64,000 bases of DNA from Amphiscolops sp. MND2022. Taxonomy: Eukaryota. This document shows positions 30,669-57,437 of this stretch, in pieces. Below the pieces are notes generated by a model. The model saw nothing but the letters and a program-made list of their open reading frames with translations. It was not told the origin of the DNA and did no database searches. The translations under genes and the position numbers were made by a program. Every line of letters starts with the position of its first letter. Positions within the stretch are counted from its first letter, which is position 1. The stretch is taken from the NCBI GenBank assembly GCA_964187785.1, contig OZ076421.1, positions 49,414,001-49,478,000 of the forward strand. Direction: 5' to 3'.

Positions 30669-32093
30669 TCAACTTGCGTCGTCATTCACATCTTCACTGG
30701 GGTCGTGTGGTATAAATGGGCGGAGCCGCATTCTATGTACACACTGTGTTTTGAAAGTCCCGCTTCTTCTAATAATGTAGTTTGACTGTGACAAAACCTT
30801 AACTACTTTGTAAGGACCTTCCCATTTGAAAGAATCAAAGGGGATCGTTTCTGATTGCGCACTAATTTTAAGATTTAGTAAGAAGACAAAGTCGATTACT
30901 TTCACTGGTGACGCTTGTGCTTTCCGATCGTAGTACGCTTTGGACTTGTGGAAGGCTCGGATTATGTTCGTGTGCGTTTCTTTGAATTTTGAATTCAAGT
31001 TGTCCACAAGGGACTCAGTGTCAGTGGTGTTCCTCGGGGGACTTAGAGTATTACCGAATTTCATATCAAGCGCGTTGTATGGCACGCGCCCATGAAAGAC
31101 TTCTGCCGGTGAACATTTCAGTGTCTGGTGGTAAGTTGTATTGTGAGCCATTACAGCTAGGTTGACGCACAGGTCCCACTGAGGGCGGTCCGCGGAATCA
31201 TTGATTTTCAGAATCTGTTCCAGGCGTTGATGCGACCTTTCGATCATCCTAATTAGTTGGGCATGTTTGATTGTCGCGTGGGAGACTTTAATACCGGCTT
31301 TGTCCATCAGTTCTTTCATGACTTGCGATGTAAAAGCTGAACCTTTGTCTGTGATGATGTGTTTCGGCACATATGCGTGTTTTGTGAATATGTCTAGCAG
31401 TGCATCAACTACAAATTCGGTATCAGGTTTTCGGATCGGGATGGCAAACAGATATCGCGAAAAATAATCGCGTGCAGTCAGAATGTGTGAGTACCCTTTA
31501 GATCGCGGTAACTCACCGACTAGATCGATTTCTAGGACGTCTTCTGGACCGTTGCAGTGGTCATAGATTGGTTCAAGTGGTGGTGTCACTGGGCTAGGTT
31601 TTACAGGTTTTGCCTTAATACAGTCTTGGCAATTGTTAACAAACTTTTGAACTTTTTCAGCTACGTTCGGGAAGTGGTACCCTTTCCTGAGTTCACCTAA
31701 TATTTTTGAAGCTCCAGTGTGTCCCTGCATTGGGTCGCCATGCATCGTCCTGATTATGGCTTCCGTAGTTTCTGGAGGAACTACAATTTGTCGGTAAGCT
31801 AAGTTTCCTACGTTGTCAAAAAACTGCCTGTACAACACGTTGTTCACTACTTCAAGTCGTTCACGGATTTTGAAGAGTTTTTTTAAAAAGGTGTTGGCAA
31901 AGTTCACTTGGTTCGGGGGGTGGGGGGGAGTTTCTTGCACAGTAAGGATCCTTATTACACATTGGACATCACTGTTTTCTCCTTGAGCCTCAACGATCTC
32001 TGAAGTCCCCGAAGGGCATACCTGATTTACCGTGTGAACCTGGCTCCGTTGGTAGAATTGGGTGAAGAAAAAGGTTGGGTCAGAGGGCGTCAC
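30669..32093 (-). pseudogene. pol: Element A integrase
   Basis: HHCC (H...GH...CQDC), D (LEIDLVG), D (ITDKG), E (IERSH), GPY module (WEGPYKV). Confidence 0.95.
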
Positions 32094-33800
32094 AAACGGT
32101 TACACCTGGGTCTTGATATCGTCATTGCGTCTATTGTACTGTTCCTCGTCTTCGTGACACCATCGAGGAAGTATCGCCAAGAGTGATTGCATCGTCGCGT
32201 TTGTGATGTTATTGCATCAGGCACATTCGTTTCGTCGGGTATGTATTCTTCTTCGTCATCATCCTGCCCAGGCGTTTTCGAGGCCAGATACATTTCGACT
32301 TTGAAGACTGGTATTTCGTCATGAAGTTTGAGGTGGATTCTGTCCTTCGGGTTGATGTTGAGTCTGGACCGGTAATCAGCAGCTGGGTTTTCAACGACAG
32401 GTACATCGGCCAGGACAAAGTTGAATTGGAGGGCCTGGTCACAGTAGTTCCACAGTTTCGGCGGTAATCGTTTGGACTGAAAAAATCTTGTGAGTGATTT
32501 GTTATCAGTCATGACGATCGTTGGTTTCTTCACTCCCCACAAGATATGGGCGAACTCGTCGAAGGCGAAGTGCATCGCTAGGAACTCCTTTGCGTACATC
32601 GTGAGTGACATCTGGCCCTCAGTAAAGCGTTGCGATTCAAAGGCTCCTGGTGCATTTGACTTCGTTGGACCATCATTAGTCTCAGTATAATCCACGATAG
32701 GAGAACGTATCCAGCTGCTTGCTCACTAGCATCGCACATGATTGCTAGCTGTTTGTCCGGAAGTGGTAGTCTCAGGGACATCTTAGCTGCATTTGAAAGG
32801 TTCTCATTGATGTCGAACATTGCATATTTATGGACTTGTATTAACTCAAATTTGACATATTTCTGCAACAGTTTGTAGAGTGGTACGAGTTTTTCGGCTA
32901 AGCATGGGATGTATTGGCGGTAGAATTGGACGAATCCAATGTATTGTTGTAGAAACATCATAGACGTTGATAACTTGATGTTTTTCAACAATTTGTCGAT
33001 TTTTTCTTCAATGGGTGCAACTGTTTTGGAGGTGATGCTTCGTCCCAGGAACTCTTTTTCGCGTTGTCCGAAAGCGCATTTAGCCATAGACAATTTCAGG
33101 CCATCTTGTCTGATCTTGATGAAAACAGACTCAAAGTTATCGACAAGCTTTTCGACATTGTTGGCTGCAATGCCGATGTCGTCAACATATTGAGCGCATT
33201 TGTCAGCATTTACCAAGGGGTCCAAGTACTCTCGAACATTACTGTTGAAGGCTGATAGTGATCGGTTCAGTCCTTGGGCTAATCTGAGGTAGGTGAACGC
33301 TTGCGAACAGTCCAGTTTGCAGAAGTATCGTTTTCCTGCCATGTGCTGCGCTGCATCGGCCATCGTCGTCACTTGGTGGTTGTGTTGATTGTAGTCACTC
33401 CTCAGTAAATGATTGATTCGTCTGAGGTTGACAAGGATTCTAAGCTTCCCATTCGGCTTGCGTTGGGCGAAGATGGGCGATGAGTACTTTCTGTACGGCA
33501 ACGTTGTGATTTTGCCGTACTCCTGCATCAACGCCAGTTCAACCAGCAGATCATCTTTCAGTTTTGTTGGTGTGGGCAAGCTTTGTGCATAGACTGGTTC
33601 GTCATGTTTGGGAGTCAACTTTATCTTGAACTCAGTGTTGATCCCTAAGTCCAATCTATGCCTGGCGGAGATGTCATGGTACTTGACCAATAGAGCCTCA
33701 TTTTTCTGCTTCTCGTGAGGGTTCAGTATTGATTGTTCCCACTGAAGTTCGCCAGGATTTCGTGTCGTTGTTCTTCACTTGCTGTTGGGCCCTCCCCTTC
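32090..33800 (-). pseudogene. pol: Element A reverse transcriptase and RNase H (frameshifted)
   Basis: YSSPIFAQRKPNGKLRIL, KLDCSQAF, QYVDD, FLG, IMCDASE, KEFLAM...TDNKSL; internal deletion after KLDCSQAF. Confidence 0.95.
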
Positions 33801-33801
33801 C

Positions 33802-34878
33802 CTAAAATTTGACCATCTCATCATAGATGCGTTTTCCGATCTTGTTTAGTTTTGACGGGTCGTCGAATGTCTCAGGGGTAGGGTACCATCGTCTATCTGA
33901 CTTTGCAGTTGGATCCTGGAAGATTTGATTCAAGACTGTTTCGGCATCATCTGGGTACTGTGAGATCAGGTTTAGTTGTTGACTGGTCATCGGCTGGAGG
34001 TTGTGGGCTTGCTTTGGTGTCATTATTTTGAATGATGCTACGGCTGTACCCACATTGATGGTAATCTGGTAGTCGAGCGAATTTGTGACCTGGACGTGCG
34101 TCCGACCCTCCTGGGTCTCGCTAATAGTCGGAGATACCAATAGGTGTGAGCGTCTTTCAAGGGCTGGTAATCCTTCAACAGTGCCAGTGATGTTACCTAG
34201 GTCGCGTTCAATTACCACTGGGACAAACACTTGTTTGTTGGGTTGGATCACAACCTTCTGGGTTGTCTTCAATTCGAGTAGTTTGTTTTTGAATTTCCCG
34301 TTGACTGATCGTAGTTGGAGGGTGATGTCCGGGAGTTTGACAATGTTGTTATCTAAGTCTATGTAAACAAAGATTTTTTGAAGAAAGACATTCCATTGAG
34401 TACGTTCCCCACAGTCGGGAACCATGAATGTTTCTTCGAAGACATTTCCACCAATAAAGAAGCGTAGCAGGACTTGTTTCCTCACTGGGACTATGTTCCC
34501 TTTGGCTATTTGGACTTCGAACTCTGGGGCTGGGAGTTCTTGGAGAAGGGCTGCTGGGTGTGCTGAGAGGATGCGACGAAGTTCTGCTTCTGATAGTGCA
34601 CTTTGAATTGCACCCGTATCGAGAACACCAAAGTTTTCGTATGCCCGAAATTGAAGAAGCATATACAACATCTTGTCCTTTTTGTTAAGTTGTAAGGTGG
34701 CACTCAGCTGGCTGATTTTGTATTTTAGTTTCTTTGGCAGATTGTTTGGTTTTGGAGGGGAGGGTTGTTCATCATCATTCGGCAACTCAGGTATCGCGTT
34801 GTCCTGACGTACTGGTTCTATGTTGGTGACTTCAGGTCTCCGTTTCAGGTCTTTCGTTTTGATGGTGTAGTTGTCCAC
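33802..34878 (-). pseudogene. pol: Element A aspartic protease plus spacer
   Basis: VLDTGAIQS catalytic motif; downstream beta-rich spacer typical of Gypsy pol. Confidence 0.9.
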
Positions 34879-34899
34879 CGAGTGTCTCGTGATGACAAA

Positions 34900-36700
34900 A
34901 TTTGTAGTTTCTTTAGCGTAGGTTGAAGGACGGGACTGCCACCTCGTGTGGTTTTGATTTGTGAGGCGTTTCTGAGTAGTAGTCGGTCGTTGTTTTTTTA
35001 GGTGCGCACTTTTGTTCAGTTGAGGTGGATGACGTGGCTTTAGACGTTTTTTGGGTCCTCCACGTCATCGTGTCGTTCTATTTCCTCAGTATCGTTAATC
35101 TCGTCATTGGCAGTGTGGGACAGCTCGTTGGTGTTATAAATTCTGTTGTTGGTTTGTTGAAAGTCCCTTCTGAACTGTTTGTTTTCTTCCGTTGACTGTT
35201 TGGTATATGCAACACTTCTGTAGGCTGATGTGGTCGTGTTCCTGTGGTAACAGTCTCGGGCAGAGTGTCCCACATTCCCACAAAGTTGACACACGAGTTT
35301 TGAGTTGTATTTGGGTCTATTGTCCTGATTCTGGGTGGATTGGGTTGATTGTCCTGGTTTCTGGTTGGCGGGTTTTGATTGTGCTTCTTATCGGAGTCGT
35401 TTTCTGCATTTCACCCATTTGTGTCCATGTATACCGCAGTGACAGCATTGACCATCGAACTTCCTCTTCGTTTTCCTGTTTTGTTGGGGTTGAGCGTTTG
35501 GTGTCTGAGGTGGGGCCGTCCTTGATTAAGGTGCACTCATCTTATTGAAGGGTTGTGCACTGGCCGTGTTTGGGAGGAGTTGTGCGTCCTGACATCTGCG
35601 TTGCACGAACGTTCTAATCTCCTCCATCGTGGCGTCATGTTTGCCCGCCATTGCCAGTTCATTCTGCATGTGCACGGGAAGCTTTGCGAACAAAAATGTC
35701 TCCGTTATGTCGCTGGATGTCTCCGAAGGCTTGTTTCGCTACATTCTTAAATTTGTTGAGAAAGTCGTTAAATGTTTCAGTGGAGGGATCGTAGCGCATT
35801 TGTAGTTTCTTTAGCGTAGGTTGAAGGACGGGACTGCCACCTCGTGTGGTTTTGATTTGTGAGACGTTTCTGAGTAGTAGTCGGTCGTTGTTTTTTTAGG
35901 TGCGCACTTTTGTTTAGTTGAGGTGGATGACGTGGCTTTAGACGTTTTTTGGGTCCACCACGTCATCGTGTCGTTCTATTTCCTCAGTATCGTTAATCTC
36001 GTCATTGGCAGTGTGGGACAGCTCGTTGGTGTTATAAATTCTGTTGTTGGTTTGTTGAAAGTCCCTTCTGAACTGTTTGTTTTCTTCCGTTGACTGTTTG
36101 GTATATGCAACACTTCTGTAGGCTGATGTGGTCGTGTTCCTGTGGTAACAGTCTCGGGCAGAGTGTCCCACATTCCCACAAAGTTGACACACGAGTTTTG
36201 AGTTGTATTTGGGTCTATTGTCCTGATTCCGGGTGGATTGGGTTGATTTTCGTGGTTTCTGGTTGGCGGGTTTTGATTGTGCTTCTTATCGGAGTCGTTT
36301 TCTGCATTTCACCCATTTGTGTCCATGTATACCGCAGTGACAGCATTGACCATCGAACTTCCTCTTCGTTTTCCTGTTTTGTTGTGGTTGAGCGTTTGGT
36401 GTCTGAGGTGGGGCCGTCCTTGATTAAGGTGCATTCATCTGATTGAAGGGTTGTGCACTGGCCGTGTTTGGGAGGAGTTGTGCGTCCTGACATCTGCGTT
36501 GCACGAACGTTCGAATCTCCTCCATCGTGGCGTCATGTTTGCCCGCCATTGCCAGTTCATTCTGCATGTGCACGGGAAGTTTTGCGAACAAAAAAGTCTC
36601 CGTTATGTCGCTGGATGACTCCGAAGGCTTGTTTCGCTACATTCTTAAATTTGTTGAGAAAGTCGTTAAATGTTTGAGTGGAGGGATCGTAGCGCATTTG
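34900..36700. repeat. 898-bp tandem duplication of the gag 3' half
   Basis: ORFs offset by exactly 898; ATTTG microhomology at 34900, 35798 and 36696. Confidence 0.96.
35046..35052 (-). promoter_or_regulatory. -1 ribosomal frameshift slippery site A AAA AAC at the gag/pol junction (copy at 35944-35950)
   Basis: Gag reads CCA AAA AAC GTC TAA; the -1 frame is open without stops into the protease ORF at 34878. Confidence 0.8.
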
Positions 36701-37084
36701 GTCAAACTTGTACTTGGCCACTTCTTTCAGGTCTTCTTTGGCATACTCTTTTTTGAAGTAACGCAAGACTTGCGCTAATGGCGTCTGATTCGTTATTTTC
36801 AATGACTGCAAGAATTCAATGTCGTCATCACGGATCAGACTTTGAAAATAAATATGTCAGTTTTTGATCTAGCAAGAGTTGCTCAAATTCGTTGTATTTT
36901 TCTCTGTTCCCTCTGAAGAGTGGGACTTGGGTTTGGAGAATTTTCGGATTTTTGACACTGTCTGTCATGGAATGCCTCAGGTGGTGGATTTTGGTGACAA
37001 TATCTTCAATTTGGTGAGCAGATGACTGAAGGTACTGTGCAGTGGGTGGTTGTGGTGGGTTCGTATGCGCGTTGCTGGTGGACG

Positions 37085-37096
37085 CTCCTGTCACCA
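37085..37096 (-). promoter_or_regulatory. Putative primer-binding site (tRNA-Leu-like)
   Basis: TGGTGACAGGAG directly after CCGACA; 11/12 match to the complement of a typical tRNA-Leu(CAG) 3' end (TGGTGTCAGGAG, from memory). Confidence 0.55.
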
Positions 37097-38068
37097 TGTC
37101 GGAACGGATCTCATGTCTTGTTGACACCGTGTTAAGGTCGTTCCCTTCTCTATTGCTAGATGTAGTCTTCTCCGTTAATACCAAAATTAAGTTTGTCAGC
37201 TCAGTTATCTGTTTGTTCATCCCAGAAAACCTTTGAATTACAGATCGTTGTTCAACCATGTTACTACTATTTAACAAAGCGCCGTTATCGAATTCGCTCA
37301 TTTGTTCTCTAGTAAGGCCATCGGGCACGCTGTCTTCGCTCTCAGCATCACTGTATCTATCAGTTCCGTTTACGTTCGTTGAGATATTTCTAGCTGTTTG
37401 CGATCTAGTATTAGCCATAAAAGAAAAATACTGGAATTTTGAACTTTTATTGATTTATTGTAATGGGAAGGTTTAATGTAAGTATAATGAGGTTGGTTAT
37501 ACACGAATACTGATGAGGTTAGCAACTGTACGTGGTAACTTCACAAAGTCTATTCGTGGCGTTCTCGCACCTGTTGTTGAGTATGTCGATGTTGGTCACG
37601 TGACCACATCGACCAATCATATTTCAGCATTTTGGTAGTTTTAGTTCACAACTCTACCAGTAATTGCGCAATTTGAGTTTAAATCTAATACTGCACTGAA
37701 TTATAATCTACTAGTGTTACTATGGTTACATGACTCACTAATTCGTTCAGCACTGTGATGTGGTTATGCTACCAACATCGTATGAGCAAATGGTTTACAT
37801 GAGCAAGGGTTATTTGGCTGACTGCAATAACGTGAAATCTGATTATGGTGTATCACCCACATCATATAATGTATCATGAAGTTGATTTGAAAGATGCATG
37901 TAGAAGGCGTATGATTATTGTTGAGAAAGAGAGGAACTTTTTAGGAACTAAATATGAACGAAGTATTTGAAAAGTTTGAGTTTAAGTTTGATAATGTAGT
38001 TCGGTTAAATACATTCTTTTCCTTTTGTCTATGCTTCTGTTCAATATTCTCATGCGTCAGGCATGACA
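37097..38068 (-). mobile_element. Element A 5' LTR (972 bp; inner boundary inferred)
   Basis: Starts TGTCATG, inferred end CGACA; contains AATAAA twice near 37445-37460 and the gag ATG. Confidence 0.7.
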
Positions 38069-38291
38069 CTGAGATTAATGAGATCGCTGGAAACAGTCCA
38101 TTTTCTGTTTTTGTGATTGAACTATTTGCAAGCAAACAAGCGTAGGAATAAAAAAGGTACTCATTTGACAAGCCATTCCTTTATGACTTTTACTACTATT
38201 TACTAGCATCCTTTGAGGTTTTTCAAAAATCATCTATGGTCTGTCATTCGGTACATTGAACATTTTTATACGAAATAAATATGATTCTCAC

Positions 38292-41200
38292 CATGAGGTT
38301 GCTGTGTATGATCTGGTTCATCAGAATCGTCCTGTCCTATGTCAGGCGTCACGTGGGGCAATTGATAAAACATGTGAAAAAGCTTCTTTTCTTGGCCGTT
38401 ACGCACTAAACTATAATCGATATATCCTCTCCAAGATCCGTTTGCTTCCACTTTTCGCATTATGTATTCCTGTTGATTGCTCACATGATCTTCGTGATCG
38501 GGGCTGCAAAATTCCAATTTATTGTCCTTCTCGAGCTTGGGTTCCAGAACCGTCAAGTTCTTTCCCAAATTGGCAAGTAGTTTCTGGTCGATTTGCATTT
38601 CAGGTATTTTACGTTTCTCGAAAAACGGGTTTAGCCTCAAATTCTTTCCATCTGTTTCGTCTCTTTCTTTCACGCAATCAAAGACAACGTTTCCGATTCT
38701 ATATTCCAAGGCTAAGATAGTTACGAACGTCGTCTCTTTGAAATACCTTTGAATATAGTTTACAGGGCTTGACGATCCTTCTCCTGTACTAAATTCCCCT
38801 ACAATGGGTGAAAAAGTGTCAGACTGGTAAATTAGTTTCTTTTCGCCATCTTCCAAGGCTATTTCGTAGTTAGACACAGCTTCCCATTCCATTTTTTCAG
38901 GCGGATGCTTCGAAAACAGTCTTGGGTAGAATCTTTTTCTTTCTTTTGGAAAAGGAAAGACTACTGATATTTGTTGTAGAAACGGCTTGTCTTCGCAATG
39001 ATCAATGCTCACTAACGGAGTTGGTTGACAAAATCCGTTAGTTTTCTCGTTGTTAATGCAATCAATGAGATACTTTGGGAAACGATTGATTTCTATTGCC
39101 ACTGATTGCGGTTCTTTTGTTGATTGTTTTGGAAAAATGGCTTCGACATCATTCAGAGATACAATTGTCTTCGTTTGGGTTAAAGTGAATCGAAACAAAG
39201 CCCAACCACTTTCATCACAATGAACTTCCAGCTTTAGAGTTTTCAGTCGAATTCCCAGTCTATCGAGTTCCTTACAAAATGCCACGATCAGTCCATCCAT
39301 TTCATTTCTGCTGTCAAATTCGAAAATTTCAATAACGACACATGGCATAGAAAAGTGTGCTGAAACTTCTGTAAATTTGATTTTCGAGAGCAATTCCCTT
39401 GTGTCTATCAAACTATCTCGCTTGAAATTGAAAACTTGTATTTTGGTGAAAATTTGAAATAGATCAAACGCGAAAGAATTGTTCAGTTGGAACAAGAAAC
39501 AGTAATCACGCTTTTGATGTATCAGAGCAAAATCTTCACACTTGAGATTGTCAATTTGGGGCAATCTCCACAATTGACATATAGCTGTGACGTCTTCGTA
39601 CGATTCAAACCAAACGTGAAATCCTTTATGAACATGAAGATTGCTCAATTTACCGTCTGTGAATGTCAAAGAAAAGTGACTTGCAGCTAAAAGACTTGTG
39701 ACATCGATCTTTTCCAGCTTTTCCGAAAGACCAGCTTCAGTAGATGTTAACGAAATCAAAAGGTGGAAAGAACTTTTTGAATCCTCAAGTGTAAGAACGG
39801 TTTCCTTCGTTGTCCGAACGAAAGAAAGTAAAGTTTTTCCGAGATATTGAACTTTCTTTACACTATCTGGCCGCAAGTTAACACCAACCAGCTTTAATAC
39901 TTTCAGGTAAGATGGGTTGGGGGGAGATTCGAAAAAGTTTGTCAAGAGATCAACAACATTTTCATCAGTTGTTCCATATCTCAGTGGTTCCATTTCTTGT
40001 CTGAGCAAGGATGAAGAAGAATTGACACAATTTATGCTGACTGAGCTACATAGAGGCAGTTTCAGCAACAACCCTAATGCATTCACATTGGAACTCTTTG
40101 AATTTGTCGTAACTATGAGGTTTTCTATTTGTACTTTAGATGGGCTAAATGAATCAATGGTTTCTCTCTTGACCAAAATTCGTTCCATAAGTATCTTGAT
40201 TGTGCAGAAATGTAAACTATTTACATTCTCAGAAGCAAAGAATCCGCCTAACTCTTCAATGGTCCTGATGGCAGCTGAAAGTACGTCAGATTGGTTTTTA
40301 CTGTGAACCATAGAACTGTTTCGTGTGACTGGAAATGGAAATCGGTAATTTGTGACTTCAATGCTACCATGGATTTTGGTTTCCTTTTCATTAATCTCAT
40401 AAAAGTCAATTGTCCCATTTAGAGCAACAAGTTCTGAATCGGCATGTTCAATGGAAATAGTAGTGCTTTCGTTCTTTTTCAATACCAGAGTTTGATAGCT
40501 TTGTCGGAAAGAACTGCCGGTTAAATAGGGAGAAAGAATCCGAAATCCATTAGCTCTAATGAAAAGATTTGATTTGAGATCGCAAACATTTAAAATCTTC
40601 AAAATAAAGAAATTTTCAATAACCATTTTTGACTGGTCAATTTCGCCAACTGTACTGTATTTAATTATAAATCTGGAAGGGTCATTGTTCACATATCTCG
40701 CCATTATTACCACGGAATTTTGCTTGGCACCATCTAAAACGTAACTTTTGATTGGATCTCCATGTATTGAAATAACTAAACTTTTAACCTCGTTGTTTCT
40801 TGATTCACTATGTTCCGGATGGCTGAAGGATGTGGAGCCAAGTCTGTAACGAGAATGCTTCTCCATAACACGCGCAGATCGTAAAGGAGCGCTGGCTGAA
40901 ATTGGGATGTTAGCTCTAGAATAAACACTTCTCGATCCAGAATATGAATCAACGTCTCTTGAATATATACATGACGAAACATTCGGTTTTTCACTCAACC
41001 TTCGAGATTTTGCAGTGGGCGCAAGCAACGTCAAGTCTTTTTCATTCAGACTTTTAGGATCCACTGGACGTTTCATCGGAGTACGTGCATATGGCGAATG
41101 AGCGAACGCTGGAAATGGATTGTTATCAGCTCTAAAAAACCCACTTCCTGATCCAAAAGATGAATCAACTTTTGATTGGTTACGGGACGAATCATTCGGT

Positions 41201-42282
41201 TTTTCACTCATCCCCCGAGATTGTACAGTGGGCCCAAGCATATTCAAGTCTTTTTCATTCAGACTTTTAAGATCCACTGGACGTTTCTCTGGAATACGTG
41301 CATATGGCGAATAAGCGAACGCTGGAAATGGATTGTTATCAGCTCTAAAAAACCCACTTCTTGATCCAAAAGATGAATCAACTTTTGATTGGTTACGGGA
41401 CGATTCATTCGGTTTTTCACTCATCCCCCGAGATTGTACAGTGGGCCCAAGCATATTCAAGTCTTTTTCATTCAGACTTTTAAGATCCACTGGACGTTTC
41501 TCTGGAATACGTGCATATGGCGAATAAGCGAACGCTGGAAATGGATTGTTATCAGCTCTAAAAAACCCACTTCTTGATCCAAAAGATGAATCAACTTTTG
41601 ATTGGTTACGGGACGATTCTTTCGGTTTTTCACTCATCCCCCGAGATTGTACAGTGGGCCCAAGCATATTCAAGTCTTTTTCATTCAGACTTTTAAGATC
41701 CACTGGACGTTTCTCTGGAATACGTGCATATGGCGAATAAGCGAACGCTGGAAATGGATTGTTATCAGCTCTAAAAAACCCACTTCTTGATCCAAAAGAT
41801 GAATCAACTTTTGATTGGTTACGGGACGATTCATTCGGTTTTTCACTCATCCCCCGAGATTGTACAGTGGGCCCAAGCATATTCAAGTCTTTTTCATTCA
41901 GACTTTTAAGATCCACTGGACGTTTCTCTGGAATACGTGCATATGGCGAATGAGCGAACGCTGGAAATGGATTGTTATCAGCTCTAAAAAACCCACTTCC
42001 TGATCCAAATGATGAATAAACTTTTGATTGGTTACGGGACGAATCATTCGGTTTTTCACTCATCCCTCGAGATTGTATAGTGGGCTCAAAGGATATCAGT
42101 AACGGTCGGACAACCTGAAAAAAACGAATAGAACATTTGATTGAAAAAAAACTACAAAAAGATTCATATGACAAATTTGACATGAAATGAACCTTTCCCA
42201 AAAGTTTTGCAATCCATCGATTTGCTCCTGGAGGAGTGCAAATCTTTGAACAAACAAGAAAAGTTCTTCGCAAATTCCACAT
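38292..42282 (-). CDS. Large exon: five 71-aa repeats, unassigned middle region, ZU5-UPA (FIIND-like); predicted to splice to the CARD exons
   Basis: 4-kb uninterrupted ORF. ZU5: VEAIFPKQSTKEPQSVAIEI and PTPLVSIDHCEDKPFLQQISVVFPFP (compare PIDD1 VSPLLCLSQSGPPSFLQPVTVQLPLP); DTF|SPIVG (compare NLRP1 PSF|SPLGV); UPA: VTILALEYRIGNVVFDCV and HMFYQLP. Phase-1 donor CATG|GTGAGA at 38292. A possible in-frame 78-nt intron at 42115-42192 leaves the true start uncertain. Confidence 0.82.
40999..42063 (-). repeat. Coding tandem repeat, 5 x 213 bp (71 aa) plus a degenerate sixth unit to about 40860
   Basis: Units start at 42063, 41850, 41637, 41424, 41211 (MSEKP...); all frame-preserving. Confidence 0.98.
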
Positions 42283-43021: not shown

Positions 43022-43753
43022 TGTAATGTAAAGCGCTTAGCCTTTGTTCACTACACAGGGTGGAGGAACTGATGCCATGGATTAAGATTCGGGACCAATC
43101 ACCATAACGCCAGTCCATTTTGTCCTCCTAAGGAAGCCGGTCCCGAGGAGGGGGAACCGTCTCTAGGGATGCTCTCTGGCCTGTTCCAGTCTGTTACTGC
43201 TGAGAATAACGGGCATTATGCTTTCTCCTCTCATAACCACCGTCTAGGCAGCCTATAAAAATGGGACTAGTTGCATAGAACTCAATTGAATTGTCCAGAA
43301 TCGTAAATAACATCAAAAGCTCTCGAATGACAAATTAATCAAACAAATCAATAAAACAGCCTCATAAAAGAGTCAAATCCAGTTTTTGGCAAGCGGTTGA
43401 ATCTAGGTGGCATAGCACCGGCGGTTCTTGGGCTGATCACAACCCTGGGTCCGGGAATGGCAACTATTTCAGCATGGGGATGGTCCGGCACGATACAAAC
43501 TCCATTTTCATCTTGTCACCGTGGGTTTTCTCGAAAATTAGCGCATAGGCTGGGCACTCGGGCCACTTCGTAGTTTCATTTTGCGTACGTTCGGCACTCT
43601 CCGCTTCGCGGGGTCTGCTCTTTCAGCCTTCTATGCTTTTTCTGGCAGGTACTTCGAGAAAACCATGTTTGAGTGCCACGTCATCCTTGAACGAATTTTT
43701 CAGCAAACTTCGAAATTTTCAAAAATCGTCGTTGATCACAGGATGTCGTTACA
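43022..43753 (-). mobile_element. Element B 3' LTR (732 bp)
   Basis: TGTAAC...ATTACA termini; roughly 97% identical to 62771-63502; preceded by purine-rich GGAGCCCGGGAGTGGA. Confidence 0.93.
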
Positions 43754-44512
43754 TCCACTCCCCGGGCTCCTGGCTTGTCGTCCCTGGCAAGCATCATAGG
43801 GGTCCACGTTGAAGATGAGATTTCACACAGGCTGTGGATACATCTTAAAGCCAGACCGCCGTTGCATAGAACAGCTACCTAGGGCAATGCCTTGTAGATC
43901 CCATGACAATTTTACGGCAAAACTTAGTATTTTTACGAAAAAAACTGAGTCGTTTATAGCACCAGTGCGAGAGCTAGAAATTCTCGATGGCTAAAGCCAT
44001 GTGAAGCACCCTTGGCTGGTTAAAACGCTTTTTTGCGGCTAGTGCCTGCTAAAAAAATTTCTTATCAGTTTGGTCAGGATTCGTCTTTGTTTCAGTTTTT
44101 TGCTAAAGATATCTTTTGTAAGAGCGCATCGGCTCAACTCAACAATTTTCAATCGATAGAACATACATGACTCAACGTAAGAGTGTCAGGCCATTTTAAA
44201 AGATCTTTTCGCTCGTCTGCTGTGCTAATGCACCTGGATATCTTTTTCCGAGCGTCACTGGAGGCTTTCGTAAAGGAAAAACAATGATTGTTCGTTTCTT
44301 TTTGTTGAACTTTGTTAACGCAATATCAGCACGAGGGGCAGGCGCACTCAGTGACCGTACACCCAAAGCAAGCAGTGAAATCATTTGATAAACAGTCATC
44401 ATTTACTAACAGTTACTAACTATCAACTAAAATTGCACCATAACTAATGCAGCACCAAGATAAGGCTAAAGAGTTCAATCGGAGTTTGTAGTAGGCAAAC
44501 GGCAAAGAAGGC

Positions 44513-47500
44513 TTAGCTTCTGATGGCTTTCGCTGAGCCCTCGGGCTCACTTATGTATTGGCAGAGGTGCATCGTTCCTTGGACAGCAGATCTATTTCGG
44601 CTACGAGGGGAATTTTCCTTGTGGGGTGGAACATCGCTCGTAGACACACGTCGGGCAGGCGAAGGTACTCTTGCTTCTGCTTCGGTGTCAATCGTCAACT
44701 GGCCAATAGGATCAGCTAGTGCCGAATTGAGCGTAAGTTCTGCAGTATGCTCTCCGCAAGGACTTGGGGCTACAGACATTGCTGTTTCGACGGTAACCTC
44801 ACTTTCCAAGGATGCAGCTTCCACAGTGAGAGTCTGCTCTAAGGACATGGCCATAACAGGGGCGGTGGTGCTTTGCGACAGTGTGGGAGCATAGCGCTGA
44901 ACACGCTCCTCTTCAGCGCGATGGTGAGCTGCTAGGGCTACTCGCTTGGAGATCCATCCGCCCTGCTTCCAAAGCGCACACGCTTTCTTCCAGGTTTCAA
45001 AATTCGTCACCTCTCAGTGGAGACATTCGTCGTCCCACTCAGCGCGCATTTCTCCACCTAGCACTTGGTTAACGATATCCAGCAGTGTCAGTGGCATGTC
45101 TCCCGACATCGTCATGCGGCCTTGAGGGCGCCAGTCCGGCTCATATTGTATCGGGGCCACCCGGCGGGAAAGATTGCGGTCACGCACCTGCGGCGCAGCG
45201 ACACTGATCCACTGTGGCACATTCGCATAATCAGTGTGGCGAAGCTGGTGGTTAAGAAGCTCTTGGCCGCTCCCAAAAGGACGAGCACGGGGATACCCCA
45301 CAGGCTCTTTCCAGTAGCGGTTGGGAACCTTAATAAATTTGAATTTGTAATCTGAGCCAACTGTGGGACTCGCATCCAGACTGGCATTGATAGTCTTCTT
45401 GACAAAGTCCACAGTCCAAGGGAACCGGAAAGGGTGTCCGTGAAGGTCCACTGGTGCGTTGTACCAGTTGACTGGTCCGTATTCACGGGGAAGCACTGCG
45501 GCCTTGCGCGTGCGGGCACGAATAACGCCCATCATATTTTCCTCGGCTTGAAGCTCAGTTTTTATGGTTGTATACGCCTGAGGCATCTCACCGCTCAGCG
45601 TTTCTTGGATCATGCATTCGCACGACATGGGTGGACTTCCCTGCAGGTAGGTAAGTATTGAAACAGTCGCTACTTGAATTGCCATGGAGACGGGTTTGGT
45701 TGGGTAACGCAGTACACCCAAAGCTCCAAAGATGGGGATCAACACTGGGGCAATGACAGGGATCAGGTCTTCCACCTCTGCCAGTGTTAAGTCAGCCAAT
45801 TGCTGTGGGAGTGGAAAGCCTGCGTTCTCGCGCGGCAGTTGCGCGTCTGGGTGATGAAGTGGTTGAGCTTGGTCAACTCCTACAAACCATCCTGATGAAT
45901 AGATTAGAGTAGAATACAACCAGTGTTGTACCGAAGCTCTCATGCGAAACAAATGGTCGGTATAGTTGTGTCCATTCTGTAAGAATAGCACCTCTCCGGG
46001 ACCAAGCAAGCTGGTTAACTTTCCTTGAGCCAGCACCAGGTATATATAAAACTCTAAGATTCCCCCTCTGGTGGTCAAATCCACGAGAATGGCTAGAGGA
46101 CCAGCCACGAACTTTGTGGGGCCCAAAGCCAATGCTAGTGCCAATACCTCATTGACCGTGGTCTGCTGCAGCAAATCAGTGAGCTTCTTTAGTTGGTCGT
46201 CCGACAGGCAAAAGTCGGCGGCAATCACATCTAAATGCCAGCCCAAGCCAAAACTTGTCAGAAGAGCCTAAAAGGACACAGACAATCCTGTTGCGGCCGT
46301 TTCCAGGCTGACGGTGGCCAAACGGTCCTGATACCAGTCACCATACGTGACTTCACGCGCCTGGACCAATTCGTCAAGCGTAACTGCTTCTTGCGCTACC
46401 AGGTGCCTTACACCCAGGGGCATTTTGATTATTTCCGAGTGGTTAGCAAATTGGATTCGAGGGATCGTTCGCTCGACCTCGCGGTTGAGTGGCTATCTGC
46501 CGATTTGATCCCAAACGGAGGCCAGGTCCGCTTTGATGGTGTTTGGGTGGGCTTCGCGCACCAACCAGTTGTATCGGCGCATGTTCTCACGCTCTTTGAG
46601 CGTGGCTTCTGGATGAGTCCGGTTGCCATTCTCGTCAAAGGTGAGCGTGCCTAGACGCATTCCGTGATCGCAATAGATTGCATCGTCCCAAGTGAGCTGG
46701 GCGTTGCCTCCCTTCTCTACCGGCTGCAGTAAACGTGAGATTGCTGCCAGATACGCGTGTGCTGACAGTGCGGCAGGGCGCAAGTCCATTTTGTCGACAC
46801 GCAAGTTGGGCGCGCACAAGTAGAATTCAATACCACGGGCTTTGTATACCTCACTCAGCATGTACACAAACTGCTGAAACATTCCTCCCCAGTACAGCAT
46901 GCCTGGAGGAGAACCGAACATGGATGGCACTCCCAACTGAGTACGGAACTTCTCTGCCGTACGCTCCATCGCGGTGGCGATCAGGTGCAGCAATCTCGAT
47001 ATCTCATGTCTGGCGGCGTCACGGGTGGTCATTTCGCGCAATAGACGCGGTAGGTCTTGCAATTGACCTTCGCAAGCCATGTGGTCCATCAAATTGGAGA
47101 AAATAATCCTCCGCGGTGGTGGCTCCTTTTGCGGTCCTTCTAGCTCCGGAGCGAACGTGGCGATGGCCACTTCGGCCATCTCTGGCAGTCGCGACAAAGG
47201 CATCGTCACTACCAGGACATCCGGAATCAGGTTGTCAAATGGGAGGTCGCATGGGACCGTGGAATCCATCATCACGCAATAACGTGCGCGCTGCAGAATG
47301 TTTTTGAGAGAGGTTGAATAGCTTTGAGGCTTCGAGGATATTGTGTCCGTGGGTCTCCCAGGTTTCACCTTGTTGCAATGAATACCTGGCGCTACATTGC
47401 GCATGTAAATCGTTCATCATGGGTCGCAGATAATTGTCGTGGGCAGTTGTTAACCTCTGAACCACTCGTTGCTCCCAAGCTGGCTCACCTTCGTCAACGT

Positions 47501-48859
47501 CAAAAGCTCGCAAGGTCCTTGTCACGTGGGCTACGATGGACAACTTCTTTAGCTGAGCTTGGTCAGCGTTCAAAGGTGGAACCCGCTGTCGATCGCGAAA
47601 TTGTCGCTCATCCAGCTTTGGGGCAACCTGCCATATGCGATTAGCATCGCGTGTCACCACAGTTCCTGCAACGTTCTCGGCGGTGGTGTTGGTTTTGTGG
47701 ACCTAGAAGCTGAGGAGGTCGCCGATGTGTTCGATCGTTCAGCACCGGTTGAGGAACTAGAGCTGGGAGCATACCTTTCCATAACCTCGCTCATCGCCAT
47801 TTGAGGCTTGGGTATACCCTGGTAGCCCACTTTCATTGGTTCCTGTATGACAACTGAACGCAGCGCATGCTGGCGTTTGCCTGGGGGAGGGCGACTTGTT
47901 GGACTATCAGCGGTTCTGACCGTTGGTGACTGTCCATGCGTTGAGGTCTGTTTCCGAACCAGCTCTTTGTCTGAGACAGGGGATAGTCCCGAAATTGGCG
48001 AGGGGGTTCTAGTCCTAACAGCGCTAGGGCCAGGCGCATTCGAACTGGTGCCTTGACCAGGAGCTTCTAGTAGGTTTTGGAGACCTGGAACCTGCTTTGA
48101 CATGGTTTTGACGAACTCTCTTGACTCCGGGTAGTTCGCCACTGCTTGGAGGGCTTGGATGACTGCCTGCTCACTTGGCGTTCTGTGCGACATGTCTGGT
48201 GCAGTGATATTGTTGCGGGCAGAGGAAGGTGCAGGAGACTGTACTGACTGCACTCTGGCGCTGGACATTGGAGAGGAGCCCTCAGGCTCCTGCTGGGACA
48301 CTGTACTTAATACCATATGTGACGCATTGGTCGCTGGAGCGCTGGCATAAGGTGCTATTTGAGCTACCGAAGGCATGACGGCATGCACACTAGGCAGATA
48401 TGTTGCTTGGCTCGTCTGCTGCATTGTTGGCGTGTGTGGCTGGATCTCAATATGTGCTGGTTGAAGGGCTTGTGGCATTGGCACGTTAGCTATGGGGATT
48501 CGCAGCGTTGCTTCCTGTTCAATTGCCGTGAGCACGCTGGGACCTCGTACCACTGAGGCGCGATCGTCAAGAAAGGGGTGAGTCAGGTCATAGCCATCCC
48601 AAGTGCCATTTTTGCAGGTCATGGTGCGCTTGTAGCCGGCCACGTCTGCGATTATTGAAACTGCCAAACTAGGCAGTGTAGGCTGTGTTTCTAACTGTGC
48701 CAATAGGGCAGTAATCCCTGCAATGGCGGCTGGCGATATGCCATTGCGCAGCCTTTCCTCAATGTACTGCACTTGCCTTACACGTTGCGTTTGGGCAACG
48801 TCCTGATTAGGTTGGGTCGTGGCAGGCATAGCTGCATAGGTGGAATAGTGATAAGCCAT
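44513..48859 (-). pseudogene. Element B ORF3 (about 1450 aa before frameshifts) with SGNH-like domain at about 46721-47281
   Basis: Overlapping long ORFs 47654-48859, 47235-47660, 46493-47404, 45014-46246, 44513-45010 tile 4.3 kb; SGNH-like blocks CVMMDS, IIFSNLMDH, FGSPPG, MDLRP; acceptor-like TTTAAC...CCCTTATTTTAG 6 nt before the ATG. Confidence 0.7.
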
Positions 48860-49097
48860 CCTGGTCTAAAATAAGGGACTGTTAAATCCTTGGTACTGAT
48901 GTCGCTTGGTGCATTATTGAAACCGGTTTCGTAAGGGAACTAGTTAGTGAAAACATTACTGTAAACATCACAGGTTAATTAAAAGGGGCACAGAAGGCGT
49001 CCTTATTCAATACGGATCTCAATGAAACATGAGGACGGAATAGAGGTACTTTAATAAAGATAAAATTAAATTTACATGAGCTTTCGCTCAAGTGAGA

Positions 49098-51500
49098 TCA
49101 ACTTGGGAGATGGCACTCAGGTGGTATAACACCAATCTCTATGCCGAGTATAGACACGTACACACGGTTGTGTAGCACTACGTGAATGTTCGTGTCCACG
49201 AACAAATCTATTAGTATCTTGTACAGATTGGTCAGGGAGATTACTGGCCTTTCGGGGTCCAGTATCGGAAAATGGACTCAGGCAAAACCCCTGTCCTCTA
49301 GCCATGCCGTTAATTGAGGCATGCATAGTAGGAAATCATCGGCCATTAGCGGGGCGCGCTGATTCGCACGGGTTATTAGCAGGTGTATAGTCTGGGCGGG
49401 TTTATTGGTGATTGCAGGGGTCAGGGGTACAATTTCTCCTACCCGAGGGCGTAGTGAAAATACCTGCTCCTTGCCGCATTCCCGCAACACGTAGCGCAGT
49501 GCTGCCGAGCTAGTCTCTAAATCGGCCGGGCACGCCAGGGCTATATGCCCTTCGACTTGCAAAAAGTCAGTGGTGTCATAGGAAATATATTCCACCATGT
49601 TCGGGCGTAAACTGCCGGGATAGACTATTTCCCGATCCGGTCCGTTATCAGGGGGTAAACACACGCGTGGGGTGCGACACTGTATTGCGGCTAAGTCCTG
49701 CCACACCGAGCGCGGCAACGCTTGGTTGTCCACACTTGCCCGGACCCACGTGTCCAGCGTGTTCAACGCTGCTCTTACTTGCAGAGGTTCTTCGAAAGTG
49801 TGGATCCATTCGTCCAATAGACGAATGCGGGGGTAGTCGGTGAAGCACGTTATGATTAGCTCCAACCACCAGCGGAACTTTACTTTCCCACGATACCAGT
49901 CAAGGAGGTGAAAGCACAAGATCAGATGTTCCGTTGTGGAAGTTCTCAAACTTTCCAGACATAGCAGCAAGTGCCGTGGTTCCACTAGCGCGTCTACACG
50001 GGGTGCAGTCACTAACAGCCACCAGTGCGGGGCAGGGCTATACACGCCACCTGGCTCTACCTCGACTCCGTATCGGTCCAGCAACAGGTCAGCAGTGATG
50101 CCTCTGGCCATTTGCACCGGCTCTCGCTCAAAGTTGAACGGACCAAACACGATGCTTGGGGGCACTGGAGGTACCACGGTTGCCAGCGTGAACTCTAGGC
50201 CTTTGCCGTCACTTGTCCATTCCTTGAAACGAGGACATGGCGCCTTCGCAACGTCTGGTACAGCAATTTGTTGCAAGATAGTTTCCGTTAAATAATTCTC
50301 AGCTCGCTCTATCCCAACGGAGGTCTTTTCCGCTCGCACCACAACACGATGAACCAGTTCAGCATTGTGTCGTCCCTCCGGGGGAACTCCCCGGGCTCCA
50401 ATGGGAACCTCCCGGTTCTCGTGCACGGCTAGCACGCATACGCAGTCGCGCAAGCCACAGGTGCCACATTTGTACCTGGGCTGCCGTTTGTGTCTCAGTT
50501 GGTATCTATTTTGGGTTCCCGTTTGGGTATTCGAATGGGTGTCCGAAATTGGTGCATAGACCTTAGATGCTGTTTTGTCTGAGGGCTTGCGTGGGCGGGG
50601 TGCCTTTGTCGCCCTTTTCTTTTTTCGAGGTCTTCCCCTCCCCCTTTTAACAGAAGGAGCGGTGGGTGGATTGGGTATTGAGGGTAGGTTTTGGTCCGGT
50701 TGGGGTGTAGGTGGACCAGAAGTGGGTGCATCGGTATCTTTGGCATGCTTGTGCCAAAGAGGGTAGTTACTGAGGTAGTCGGTAAGAGAAGGATGTGTCA
50801 GCAGCGGAGCAGAGGTACCCGAGGGGGATAGCTCCGGTGGATTGTCTGACGGTGATAACTGTGGTGAGGGTGAGCGCCTAGGCTCATGATCGGAAAATAG
50901 CTGCGGAAGGCAGTCGAACATTGACGTGTCTGACAACTGAGCAGGCATATCGGTGATGTTTGTAGGCTGCGTTTGCATCAGTTGCGGGGAATGGGTGGGA
51001 ATAGGGAGCATCGCGTCCGAGGTCTCATCGTCGGTCCCTGACGTGGAATATTCGAACTGTTGGTAATGCTGTCGGGCTCCTCCTGCGCGCAGCTTAGCGC
51101 GCAACCTAATGTCCATCCAATGGCGCTTCCTGGATGGCAGTGACACATCCGATGCCTCTGAAAGTAATGGTTCAGAGTGATAGGAGGGCTTGGAACAATC
51201 ATCATCAATTGGTTCCATGGAGCGCTCGGGCTCAGGATCCATTACCACGGCGATGTCACCGGTATCCAATGGGGTTGCGGCGAACTCCAGGGGGCTACTA
51301 TTATGAGGTTTCAAACGTTCAAAGTGAACCTTTTGCCCAGTGTCCAGGATGTACACACGTCCATCCTGGAGAGTGTGAAAAATGCGGTGTGGACCTCGCC
51401 AGGCCCGCATTAGTTTCGGTGAACCCTTTTGTGGAACATACCGACAAAAAACCCAGACCAAGTCGCCAGGTTTGTAAGCTTTAGCCTGTATTGCGCGATC
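49098..51500 (-). pseudogene. pol: C-terminal extension of element B integrase: WRGPH module, AT-hook, Cys cluster, two TARG1/OARD1-like macrodomains
   Basis: Same frame as IN across one TAA (51501-51503); KRGRGRPRKK (50619-50648); CGTCGLRDCVC (50436-50468); macro 1 about 49812-50204; macro 2 about 49170-49598, crossing a TGA at 49278-49280. Confidence 0.75.
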
Positions 51501-55339: not shown

Positions 55340-55904
55340 GGTCTCCGTGGCGATGACTATACCCATTACCATGCTGCCTTCACGGTTTACAATGTTGCGC
55401 AGCGCTCGTGTTATTGCTCTTTGGAAAGTGGCAGAGGCATTGCACATGCCAAAGGGCATGCGTCTCCACTCGAACAACCCTAGCTCACAGACGAAGGCAA
55501 TTTTTCTGGCGGTCAGCCTTCCGGACTGGAATTTGCCAATGTGCCCAAGCTAGATCTATACTAGTGTAGATCTTGGCTTTGCCCAGCCTGGCCAGGCTTT
55601 CATCAATGCGAGGCAATGAATATGCATCCTTTACAGTGACCTCATTCAAAGGGCGGAAATCACAGCAGAAGCGTAACTCGCCGTTCTTTTTCTTCACCAT
55701 CACGATTCCGCTTGCCCACGGGGACAGGGAAGGTTGGATCATTCCCAATGCAAGCAAGTTTCGCACTTCCTGATTAGCCCGTTCGGCTTTTTCAGGGGAC
55801 ATGCGCCGTACACCTTCACGGTGAGGTATGGCGCCTGCTTCTACTTCTACAGGATGCTTGGCTATGGTGCATCGACCAATGTCAGCCTTATGTTTCATGA
55901 ACAA
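55016..55904 (-). pseudogene. pol: Element B reverse transcriptase, catalytic YxDD deleted
   Basis: SPWASGIVMVKKKNGELRFCCDFRPLN, SIDL, RMPFGM; reads SMVMGIVIA where AYxDD is expected. Confidence 0.93.
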
Positions 55905-56178
55905 ATCATCAAACTCTGTGAGAATGTTGTCAAGTGCCGTGCAGGCCGCTGGGCCCCAGAGGTCCTGGACCTTTTGAGTTGCGACTCAGGTCCCGGTATG
56001 GGAGCCATAAACTCTGGGTCCGCGCGCTTGCGTATCTCGCGATCCGGGAGACCTGCTTCAGTTGGCTCAGTGGAAGACAAAAATTCAAATTCGGAGGAAG
56101 AGGTTAATTGAGAGTCAGTACTATAGTTCATTTTCTCATAAACTCTATTTACAAACAAAAGATGGTCATTATCTGGCG

Positions 56179-56878: not shown

Positions 56879-56879
56879 G

Positions 56880-57371: not shown

Positions 57372-57437
57372 TAATACGCGATCATCCTCTAAGGGTACGG
57401 TGTGCGCAGCAACGCCTGCCGACTCGACCTCTGCCGA

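Follow-up and report, generated by a model that had tools for sequence, protein, structure and literature searches.

The five-fold repeat studied here, found in a window of 64,000 nucleotides (the whole stretch of DNA that was analysed), encodes the disordered N-terminal leader of what seems to be an animal gene for an invertebrate, FIIND-like, self-cleaving cell-death sensor. The conserved part of this leader resembles a phosphorylation-dependent destruction tag and not a set of viral-protease cutting sites. The explanation tentatively favoured, with a likelihood a little short of even, is that a start-codon-containing, disordered, degron-bearing leader was recently amplified in tandem and in frame, taken jointly with a gene order of leader, UPA-like, LRR-like, ZU5, Phe-Ser-Pro motif, UPA and CARD (Table 1). 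That the leader is repeated five-fold may in itself be incidental.

Table 1. Features of the candidate sensor gene and its surroundings, in window coordinates (a slash marks a scissile bond or exon-intron boundary)
Feature	Position	Strand	Remarks
Gypsy element B, broken	43022..63502	-	Lies upstream of the gene; its two LTRs share 97.4% identity
Putative splice acceptor and leader	42064..42124	-	T-run and CAG, first exon base 42114; predicted from sequence context
Repeat unit 1	41851..42063	-	71 aa; starts with the first in-frame ATG past the putative acceptor
Degron-like motif of unit 1	42018-42001	-	YSSFGS, Asp lost
Repeat unit 2	41638..41850	-	DSSFGS at 41805-41788
Repeat unit 3	41425..41637	-	1 nt from units 2 and 4; DSSFGS at 41592-41575
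Repeat unit 4	41212..41424	-	Identical to unit 2; DSSFGS at 41379-41362
Repeat unit 5	40999..41211	-	Resembles unit 1 in its 5' half, diverged in its 3' half; DSSFGS at 41166-41149
Degenerate sixth copy (older)	40786..40998	-	DSYSGS kept at 40950-40933; GFFR, NPFPAF and QS absent
N-terminal UPA-like beta-sandwich	40342..40779	-	AlphaFold2 model
LRR-like alpha/beta solenoid and linker	39223..40338	-	Predicted structure
ZU5 domain	38743..39204	-	Ankyrin ZU5, Z 11.8, rmsd 2.6, 142 aligned
His1127 in ZU5	38907-38905	-	31 residues upstream of the cleavage-type motif
Phe1158/Ser1159-Pro	38814-38806	-	Just ahead of the last ZU5 beta-strand
C-terminal UPA domain	38350..38730	-	CARD8 UPA, Z 6.6; AnkB ZU5-UPA, Z 12.9
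Putative phase-1 intron	17975..38291	-	20.3 kb, donor G/GTGAG; holds broken Gypsy element A
Gypsy element A, broken	~18923-38068	-	Same strand as the gene; inside the putative intron
Putative CARD first-half exon	17845..17974	-	~43 codons; phase-matched splice sites; acceptor of middling strength
Putative last exon	17449..17662	-	CARD second half, acidic tail, stop; strong acceptor

The repeat opens a stop-to-stop ORF of 1,339 codons (38266-42285, minus strand) that carries all units in frame. Each of the five other frames holds 7-48 stops against none here, which ruled out another frame or strand. Tandem Repeats Finder places the array at 40912-42089 (period 213, 5.5 copies, 95% matches), that is, five in-frame units of 213 bp (71 aa) and a degenerate sixth copy, inside which falls the lower limit of 40860 given in a preliminary description of this DNA. 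The five near-identical units announced there were recovered, although they belong to three types: units 2-4 lie 0-1 nt apart, with unit 1 at 5-6 nt from them, and unit 5 stands 15-17 nt from each of the other four full units. GFFR, NPFPAF and NQSK, three of the motifs ascribed to every unit, do occur in 5/5 full units, but TVQSR is limited to four, unit 5 reading TAKSR; a TIQSR stands before unit 1. The composition called Ser/Pro/Lys-rich has to be corrected to Ser/Pro/Asn/Arg-rich (S 11, P 7, N 6 and R 6 of 71), as Lys (5/71) matches the 7.4% of the folded part and is not enriched. Codon differences among units comprise 14 non-synonymous against 3 synonymous changes, showing no sign of purifying selection.

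The disorder expected of this N-terminus was borne out by prediction. All six units score below zero in FoldIndex (-0.06 to -0.15) and the next 520 aa above it (+0.20 to +0.24), and AlphaFold2 gives units 4-6, the only ones folded, a pLDDT below 50 and no secondary structure. This low pLDDT is partly expected because none of the homologues examined carries the repeat, leaving no alignment depth there. A folded repeat domain was ruled out on these two grounds. Shorter repeat-bearing proteins were likewise absent among 8,000 candidates, nor did any transcript or allele containing the repeat turn up.

The start proposed by the ORF finder, 73 codons upstream, was rejected as it crosses the likely splice acceptor; a 26-nt leader following this acceptor is duplicated along with the ATG. 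At the other end, the gene probably continues into a CARD split over two exons beyond the 20-kb Gypsy-filled intron, as judged from splice signals and reading phase. Spliced together, the three predicted exons give an uninterrupted frame of 1,371 codons, and the last one matches the second half of Pfam CARD, below threshold, at E 0.0034-0.01 (16-18 bits for a cut-off of 23.9) from profile position 40-43 of 85. The putative first-half exon alone has no Pfam match, and none of 26 candidates proved to be a longer protein with the CARD half-exon. For the half-CARD, ESM Atlas returned GidA-type helical fragments and no support for a CARD; PDB sequences gave nothing relevant for the last exon, a profile built from the death-domain-like tails of four relatives did not match the spliced tail, and a complex prediction of the two half-exons scored 0.01, which carries no weight either way. 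The CARD exons sit behind a same-strand LTR element, and AATAAA signals occur in the intron.

The folded part is recognized by structure. The whole ORF matches no Pfam family at E<=0.1, including FIIND, ZU5 and UPA; Pfam yielded nothing relevant for 27 homologues either, PDB sequences searched with the ORF or the family profile gave nothing relevant and no solved FIIND chain at E<=10, and ESM Atlas returned only unnamed clusters (0.77-0.78) for the folded part. For the first beta-sandwich, UPA domains fill all of the top five VIA ranks: rNLRP1 (Z 6.8, rmsd 2.9, 102 aligned), AnkB (6.1), CARD8 (6.0), hNLRP1 (5.8) and UNC5b (5.5). In Foldseek, C2 domains head the list instead, though not one reaches E<=0.001. 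The profile match of this domain to UPA being weak (E 0.1-0.4), the UPA-like assignment rests on structure; the domain is found in 10 homologues. The following solenoid has no Pfam match and resembles many LRR proteins (Z 6.5-8.8 over model residues ~360-655). A single ZU5 is seen by both profile and model, and the ZU5-UPA fold lies nearer to ankyrin and UNC5 than to NLRP1 in Foldseek (AnkB E 1e-12, UNC5b 9e-9, rat NLRP1 1.1e-5). Another member of the family, P0020, looks by eye like a NACHT-like, LRR-like, ZU5-UPA and death-domain-like protein, with no Pfam match.

The Phe1158-Ser1159 pair falls between model strands 861-868 and 874-879 and is preceded by Thr instead of Ser. Among the 18 alignment rows that cover the site, F-S is kept in 15, the Ser in 17, Ser-Pro in 16 and the upstream His in 16. 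The earlier view of the repeat as a disordered N-terminus is supported; the protein behind it has ZU5, an F-S motif of the self-cleavage type, UPA and a probable spliced CARD, and this combination makes a functional-degradation mechanism reasonable. By analogy with NLRP1 and CARD8, degradation of the front and release of UPA-CARD is plausible. The protein would cut itself between Phe1158 and Ser1159, with both halves remaining bound; the leader would offer the proteasome a handle for removing the front half, and the Ser-Pro-UPA-CARD fragment, once freed, would form oligomers and recruit a caspase. As long as the front half is in place, this UPA may be capped by the extra N-terminal UPA-like domain.

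The nature of the trigger is suggested by the leaders of the relatives, in which DSxx[G/E]S is preserved as a motif that the family has inherited. A canonical DSGxxS, a motif picked after inspection (post hoc), occurs within the first 120 aa of 4/27 homologues for 0.07 expected in shuffles, none of 2,000 shuffles reaching three. These four homologues represent three lineages, 23-28% identical, and each carries the motif in an acidic disordered leader, its second Ser being followed by Pro. A DSxx[G/E]S lies at a similar place in P0003, P0004 and the NACHT-like P0020. The relaxed form in P0021, an internal fragment, is probably due to chance; two more DSGxxS matches sit in folded regions of P0004 and P0006, and the motif is absent from 4/10 homologues with the N-terminal UPA-like domain (P0009, P0014, P0018 and P0023). 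The units of the window gene contain no canonical DSGxxS: four read DSSFGS, one YSSFGS and one DSYSGS, the Gly being replaced by Ser or Tyr, and the Asp also being lost in unit 1. The degenerate sixth copy retains DS-x-x-GS despite the loss of GFFR, NPFPAF and both QS sites. Unit 5 aligns via the motif to the single-copy leader of P0003, the closest relative (score 45, equalled by 0.3% of 1,000 shuffles), and neither unit 5 nor unit 6 aligns significantly to the other seven leaders tested. A tree from which the leaders were left out places the window gene and P0003 within a set of DSG-bearing branches (unstarred node, 93/95 support). From these sequences, the degron-like motif may be decaying in the window gene.

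The ancestral trigger would thus be phosphorylation of a beta-TrCP-type DSGxxS(P), acting from kinase to SCF to proteasome, and not a pathogen protease. In the branch of the window gene, the degron would have lost its Gly before the leader was copied five to six times, which would multiply weak degron-like and phospho-sites and lengthen the unfolded handle. In published work, an SCF-type degron fused to NLRP1B suffices for its activation (10.1101/317834), human NLRP1 is activated once its linker is phosphorylated, by way of cullin ligases and cullin-dependent degradation, the text consulted naming no specific ligase or degron (PMC9623368), and beta-TrCP motifs are more degenerate than DSGxxS (PMC5954166). 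In the literature searched, whose coverage leaves out most subscription journals, no FIIND or ZU5-UPA sensor was found described with a beta-TrCP degron, nor NLRP1 with a DSGxxS-type motif. Of the two papers mentioning FIIND and beta-TrCP together, one treats beta-TrCP only as a viral target; the other is PMC9253692.

The same Asp-Ser could instead be a cut site for a host caspase, which, once active, would trim the leader and amplify signalling. Small residues after Asp are preferred by caspases, and degron and caspase sites can overlap. All motif-bearing leaders have acidic or Val residues ahead of Asp-Ser, with candidate sites DDND/S (P0008), EDAD/S (P0004-6) and SKVD/S or RDVD/S (units). 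This reading is nevertheless very unlikely: it leaves unexplained why the divergent DSGxxS lineages share Gly at +2, Ser at +5 and a Pro thereafter, and unit 1 has lost the Asp.

The preliminary description had read the units as multiplied protease baits. Under this reading, a viral or retroelement protease would cut the leader at F/F, F/P or Q/S, and the new N-terminus would lead to degradation and UPA-CARD release. The T-V-Q/S of the units presumably fits coronavirus-type 3CL specificity, and FF, [FY]P and two Q[SG] co-occur in only 0.6% of 20,000 shuffled units (a post hoc figure). The sensor architecture permits such a tripwire, and any cut in the NLRP1B leader can activate, whatever its position (10.1101/317834); the cited precedent of CARD8 cut by HIV-1 protease between F59 and F60 is correct (PMC10359095). 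The dipeptides taken singly are however near chance: FF appears in 26% of shuffled units, [FY]P in 53%, Q[SG] in 38% and all three in 4.9%, and the folded part holds 0.34 FF, 0.60 [FY]P and 0.51 Q[SG] per 71 aa. They are lost in the sixth copy, which lacks GFFR, NPFPAF and both QS sites, and mostly missing in the leaders of six relatives (FF 0/6, [FY]P 1/6, QS 3/6). Moreover, no breadth is gained from copies that are identical, unlike known tripwires, which diversify, as CARD8 does under positive selection (PMC10249858). A protease tripwire is accordingly held improbable, and its retroelement-specific version, in which the two adjacent Gypsy elements would be sensed, scarcely credible. Both elements retain the protease D-T-G motif, yet their pol is split over several frames and LTR elements make up 62% of the window, so that adjacency is little informative; the link with these proteases was rejected.

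A close rival to degron-leader amplification is a neutral or near-neutral coding minisatellite in a tolerant N-terminus, its copy number perhaps inflated by assembly and the gene perhaps crippled by LTR insertions; the leader might still be a handle, but the number five would mean nothing. This explanation, possible though on the doubtful side, fits the near-identity of units 2-4, the seemingly unconstrained substitutions and the absence of the repeat from homologues. A duplication also costs nothing because the unit length is a multiple of three and each unit brings its own ATG in the same context. Furthermore, another six tandem duplications occur locally in the window (0.7-2.6 kb, 96-99.8% identity), several within broken elements. 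Against it, at least three distinct unit types and an old degenerate copy point to repeated real duplication, the 4-kb frame is intact although the flanking elements are broken, and P0018, with its own separate N-terminal repeat, hints at a family tendency.

Amplification of a degron-bearing leader may be extended to the family. In its broadest form, judged unlikely, an invertebrate lineage would possess an expanded family of its own of self-cleaving ZU5-UPA-death-fold sensors, one of them NLR-like, switched on by a built-in beta-TrCP phosphodegron and guarding kinase or ubiquitin-ligase activity as a decoy of IkappaB or beta-catenin, with the second UPA as internal cap and sensitivity tuned here by leader copies. 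A Pfam-invisible family in which a textbook DSGxxS(P) is kept along with the F-S-P site and the His would be a directly testable natural case of kinase-to-SCF-to-functional-degradation, a logic that, if this is true, would seem to have arisen outside vertebrates.

Among known systems, CARD8 shares the disordered N-terminal leader, the ZU5-UPA in which F-S precedes the last ZU5 strand and a His lies upstream, and a C-terminal CARD (probable here). CARD8 self-cleaves in the loop before this strand, its His270 lying 26 residues upstream of the site compared with 31 for His1127 (PMC3210808 for CARD8). Unlike CARD8, the window gene has ~520 aa of UPA-like and LRR-like sequence between leader and ZU5, lacks a sequence-level FIIND match, and bears a homogenised 71-aa tandem array in place of a positively selected single stretch. 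NLRP1 (NACHT-LRR-FIIND-CARD) also has an LRR region immediately ahead of ZU5-UPA-CARD, and its NLRP1-CT, held by DPP9, starts with Ser-Pro (10.1101/2020.08.14.246132) as the predicted freed fragment would. NLRP1 is moreover known to be triggered when a disordered linker is phosphorylated (PMC9623368). The window gene differs from NLRP1 by the absence of NACHT or PYD, the extra N-terminal UPA-like domain and the DSGxxS-type motif.

PIDD1 (LRR-ZU5-ZU5-UPA-DD) similarly places LRRs ahead of ZU5-UPA and a death fold and has an F-S self-cleavage motif (PMC3210808), whereas the window gene has one ZU5, TF-S and not HF-S, a CARD-like and not a death domain, and a long disordered leader. The ZU5-UPA-DD supramodule of ankyrin and UNC5 provides the best structural matches to the ZU5-UPA part, from which the window gene departs in having neither ankyrin repeats nor a transmembrane part; UNC5b carries Leu at the scissile Phe position of CARD8 (PMC3210808), whereas the family of the window gene keeps F-S. 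Finally, the beta-TrCP phosphodegrons of beta-catenin, IkappaB, Snail and NRF2 are matched by the DSGxxS, then Pro, of the four relatives' acidic disordered leaders, the window units having DSSFGS or DSYSGS without the Gly. In contrast to these phosphodegrons, whose destruction removes an inhibitor or a transcription factor, destruction would here switch on the released fragment.

Sequence searches assign no named family to the protein encoded by the repeat-bearing ORF, whose 27 homologues or fragments comprise P0003-P0006 (38-61% identity) and P0007-P0029. A structure model of residues 288-1331 built from 25 sequences (pTM 0.66) shows a beta-sandwich followed by an alpha/beta solenoid, a ZU5 domain and a UPA domain, all C-terminal to the repeat. 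In Foldseek, the ZU5-UPA pair matches AnkB (E 1e-12), UNC5b (9e-9) and rat NLRP1 (1.1e-5), with Z 12.9 and 11.8 in a second structural comparison, where the solenoid matches many LRR proteins (Z 6.5-8.8). The first sandwich is labelled UPA-like from its model: modelled alone, its best five matches are all UPA domains (Z 5.5-6.8), and Foldseek ranks C2 domains top with weak E-values. In the model, Phe1158-Ser1159-Pro lies immediately before the final ZU5 strand, the corresponding place to that at which CARD8 is reported to self-cleave (PMC3210808, available text). Among the 18 of 25 aligned rows reaching this site, F-S is conserved in 15, Ser in 17, Ser-Pro in 16 and an upstream His in 16; FSP also occurs there in P0011 and P0020, both outside that alignment.

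Several homologues vary this architecture. P0020 (1,301 aa) looks like an NLRP1-like arrangement, with NACHT-like, LRR-like, ZU5-FSP-UPA and death-domain-like parts, and Pfam gives no match on it. P0011 has two ZU5-UPA modules, P0014 a UPA preceding the UPA-like domain, and P0022, judged by eye, an ankyrin-like-looking N-terminus and a death-domain-like tail. P0010 (96 aa) shares 96% identity with the final stretch of the window ORF and, on sequence, appears to be an allele or very close paralogue.

No death fold was found within the ORF itself. A donor at 38292/38291 joined to two putative exons gives 1,371 stop-free codons from the first repeat ATG. The final exon has a sub-threshold Pfam CARD match (E 0.003-0.01) that begins at position 40-43 of the 85-position profile, making a CARD probable in the spliced model. 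Transcripts without the CARD are possible because the 20-kb intron holds the broken, same-strand Gypsy element A and contains AATAAA at 37459 and 37451. Just downstream of the CARD exon lies an inverted repeat pair, possibly DNA-transposon ends.

The repeat array was confirmed as described initially, with some corrections. GFFR, NPFPAF and NQSK occur in all five full units and TVQSR in four; divergence is 0-1 nt among units 2-4, 5-6 nt between these and unit 1, and 15-17 nt between unit 5 and the other four, so "near-identical" covers three types. Four variant sites are common to units 1 and 5 versus units 2-4. The ORF's own frame is the sole one open across the array. The units are enriched in Ser, Pro, Asn and Arg, and the supposed Lys richness fails, Lys being at no excess over the remaining protein. 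Disorder is predicted by negative FoldIndex in 6/6 units and by pLDDT <50 for units 4-6 in the AlphaFold2 model, a stretch devoid of alignment support. In another family member, P0018, residues 1-20 form a short and independent tandem repeat (Gln/Pro/Met).

The preliminary description suggested that the units may be multiplied protease baits, as in the CARD8 tripwire. The CARD8 facts it cited hold in the available parts of the sources (PMC10359095; PMC10249858), the second reporting positive selection on that tripwire. However, in 20,000 shuffles of a unit, the frequencies are 26% for FF, 53% for [FY]P and 38% for Q[SG]; 4.9% of shuffles contain all three, and 0.6% contain them with a second Q[SG]. 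Per 71 aa of the folded part, the counts are 0.34, 0.60 and 0.51, respectively. The degenerate unit 6 has lost all these candidates, and the leaders of six relatives show FF in none, [FY]P in one and QS in three. The window units are homogenised copies, whereas the CARD8 tripwire is positively selected. A pathogen-protease tripwire is thus an improbable explanation of the leader, and a caspase site in it is more doubtful still.

Sensing of the adjacent Gypsy proteases was also proposed, and is very improbable. Both elements keep the D-T-G protease motif, but their pol is split across several frames and together they fill 62% of the window, so that adjacency is uninformative. Identity between LTR copies is 92.7% in element A and 97.4% in element B. 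Of the initial reading, the repeat is confirmed and the interpretation is partly supported: activation through degradation is reasonable, and the baits and the Gypsy sensing are not supported. Element B has long ORFs with no Pfam match, possibly accessory genes. The host genome is that of an animal, rich in AT and in LTR elements, and carries a bHLH gene.

Positions of the features discussed (window coordinates)
Feature	Position	Strand	Remark
ORF carrying the array	38266-42285	minus	1,339 codons
213-bp tandem array	40912-42089		5.5 copies, in frame with the ORF
Five full 71-aa units	42063 to 40999	minus
Degenerate sixth unit	40998 to 40786	minus
Likely splice acceptor	42114	minus	5' of array
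Putative exon	17974-17845	minus	splice model; ~43 codons before last exon
Putative last exon	17662-17449	minus	splice model and sub-threshold Pfam CARD match
Inverted repeat pair	13149-13202 / 17375-17428		54 nt, 80% complementary, 4.2 kb apart
Element A	18923-38068	minus	~10 kb strongly skewed sequence between it and the second LTR copy
Second LTR copy and partial gag, seemingly following A	18923-20729
Unexplained ORFs between A and the second LTR copy	27121-29602	plus
Long ORFs in element B	45014-51500	minus	306-740 aa, 3' of pol
Local tandem duplications	4163-7269, 14044-16724, 21172-26334, 34900-36700, 52012-54576, 53097-55339		0.7-2.6 kb, 96-99.8% identity, several within Gypsy elements
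Degenerate 30-bp array	7221-7917		precedes bHLH exon
bHLH exon	7908-8135	plus	Pfam HLH, E 6.7e-21

A DSGxxS motif followed by Pro is found in the acidic leaders of P0005, P0006, P0008 and P0029. Within the first 120 aa, it occurs in 4 of the 27 homologues against a shuffle mean of 0.07, and none of 2,000 shuffles reaches 3. As P0005 and P0006 are 75% identical, the carriers represent three lineages with 23-28% identity between them. Relaxed forms in P0004 (DSCFES), P0003 (DSETGS), the NACHT-like P0020 (DSAFES, residue 52) and the internal fragment P0021, where the occurrence is probably chance, bring the total to 8/27. The motif is absent from 4 of the 10 homologues having the N-terminal UPA-like domain: one of them is leaderless, another is partial, a third has another UPA in front and the fourth a short Gln/Pro repeat. 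From its Met through the motif, unit 5 can be aligned with the single-copy leader of P0003 (0.3% of 1,000 shuffles score as high); 15 other unit-versus-leader comparisons gave nothing significant. A tree of 10 rows, leaders excluded, groups the window gene with P0003 (100/99), adjoining P0004-P0006 (93/95, unstarred), and leaves P0008 and P0029 outside. Thus, DSG would be the simplest ancestral state, Gly having been lost along the window gene's branch, where units 2-5 read DSSFGS, unit 1 YSSFGS and unit 6 DSYSGS. DSGxxS is the beta-TrCP phosphodegron, and actual substrates are more degenerate (PMC5954166, available text); the window gene's form is non-canonical and may be decaying.

An amplified degron-bearing leader is tentatively preferred as the explanation. 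Most likely, the protein would self-cleave at F|S and the proteasome would remove the front half, freeing Ser-Pro-UPA-CARD; the leader would be the handle for degradation and the phosphodegron its inherited trigger. In the available parts of the sources, NLRP1B is activated by an SCF-type degron alone (10.1101/317834) and human NLRP1 through cullins on linker phosphorylation (PMC9623368). UPA-UPA contacts are both inhibitory and activating in NLRP1 (10.1101/2020.08.14.246132), which suggests that the extra UPA-like domain could cap the freed fragment.

The copy number itself may be a neutral or assembly-inflated expansion, a close rival to the preferred reading. Because each unit brings an ATG of its own together with 26 nt of leader, duplication is cheap, and between-unit changes look unconstrained. 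Inflation of units 2-4 by assembly is a possibility too, given six further local duplications of near-identical sequence in the window, which are either very recent or artefacts of overlapping assembly. The four readings (degron-bearing leader, neutral or inflated expansion, tripwire, caspase site) are not fully exclusive. What matters most is the degron at the level of the family, together with the architecture, more than the number of repeat copies.

Literature searches found no beta-TrCP degron on a FIIND/ZU5-UPA-type sensor; in the available part of the closest match, beta-TrCP figures only as a rotavirus target (10.64898/2026.10.24.761588). If the host is an acoel flatworm, the gene would be of note, since these animals reportedly have no NF-kappaB signalling yet keep NLRs (PMC12849515, available text). 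PIDD1 identity is ruled out by the single ZU5 and TF|S. The gene would function like NLRP1 or CARD8, as a candidate FIIND-sensor-like protein with no sequence match to FIIND. In fold it is closer to ankyrin and UNC5; it also has an added UPA-like domain, and its LRR-like region comes without NACHT.
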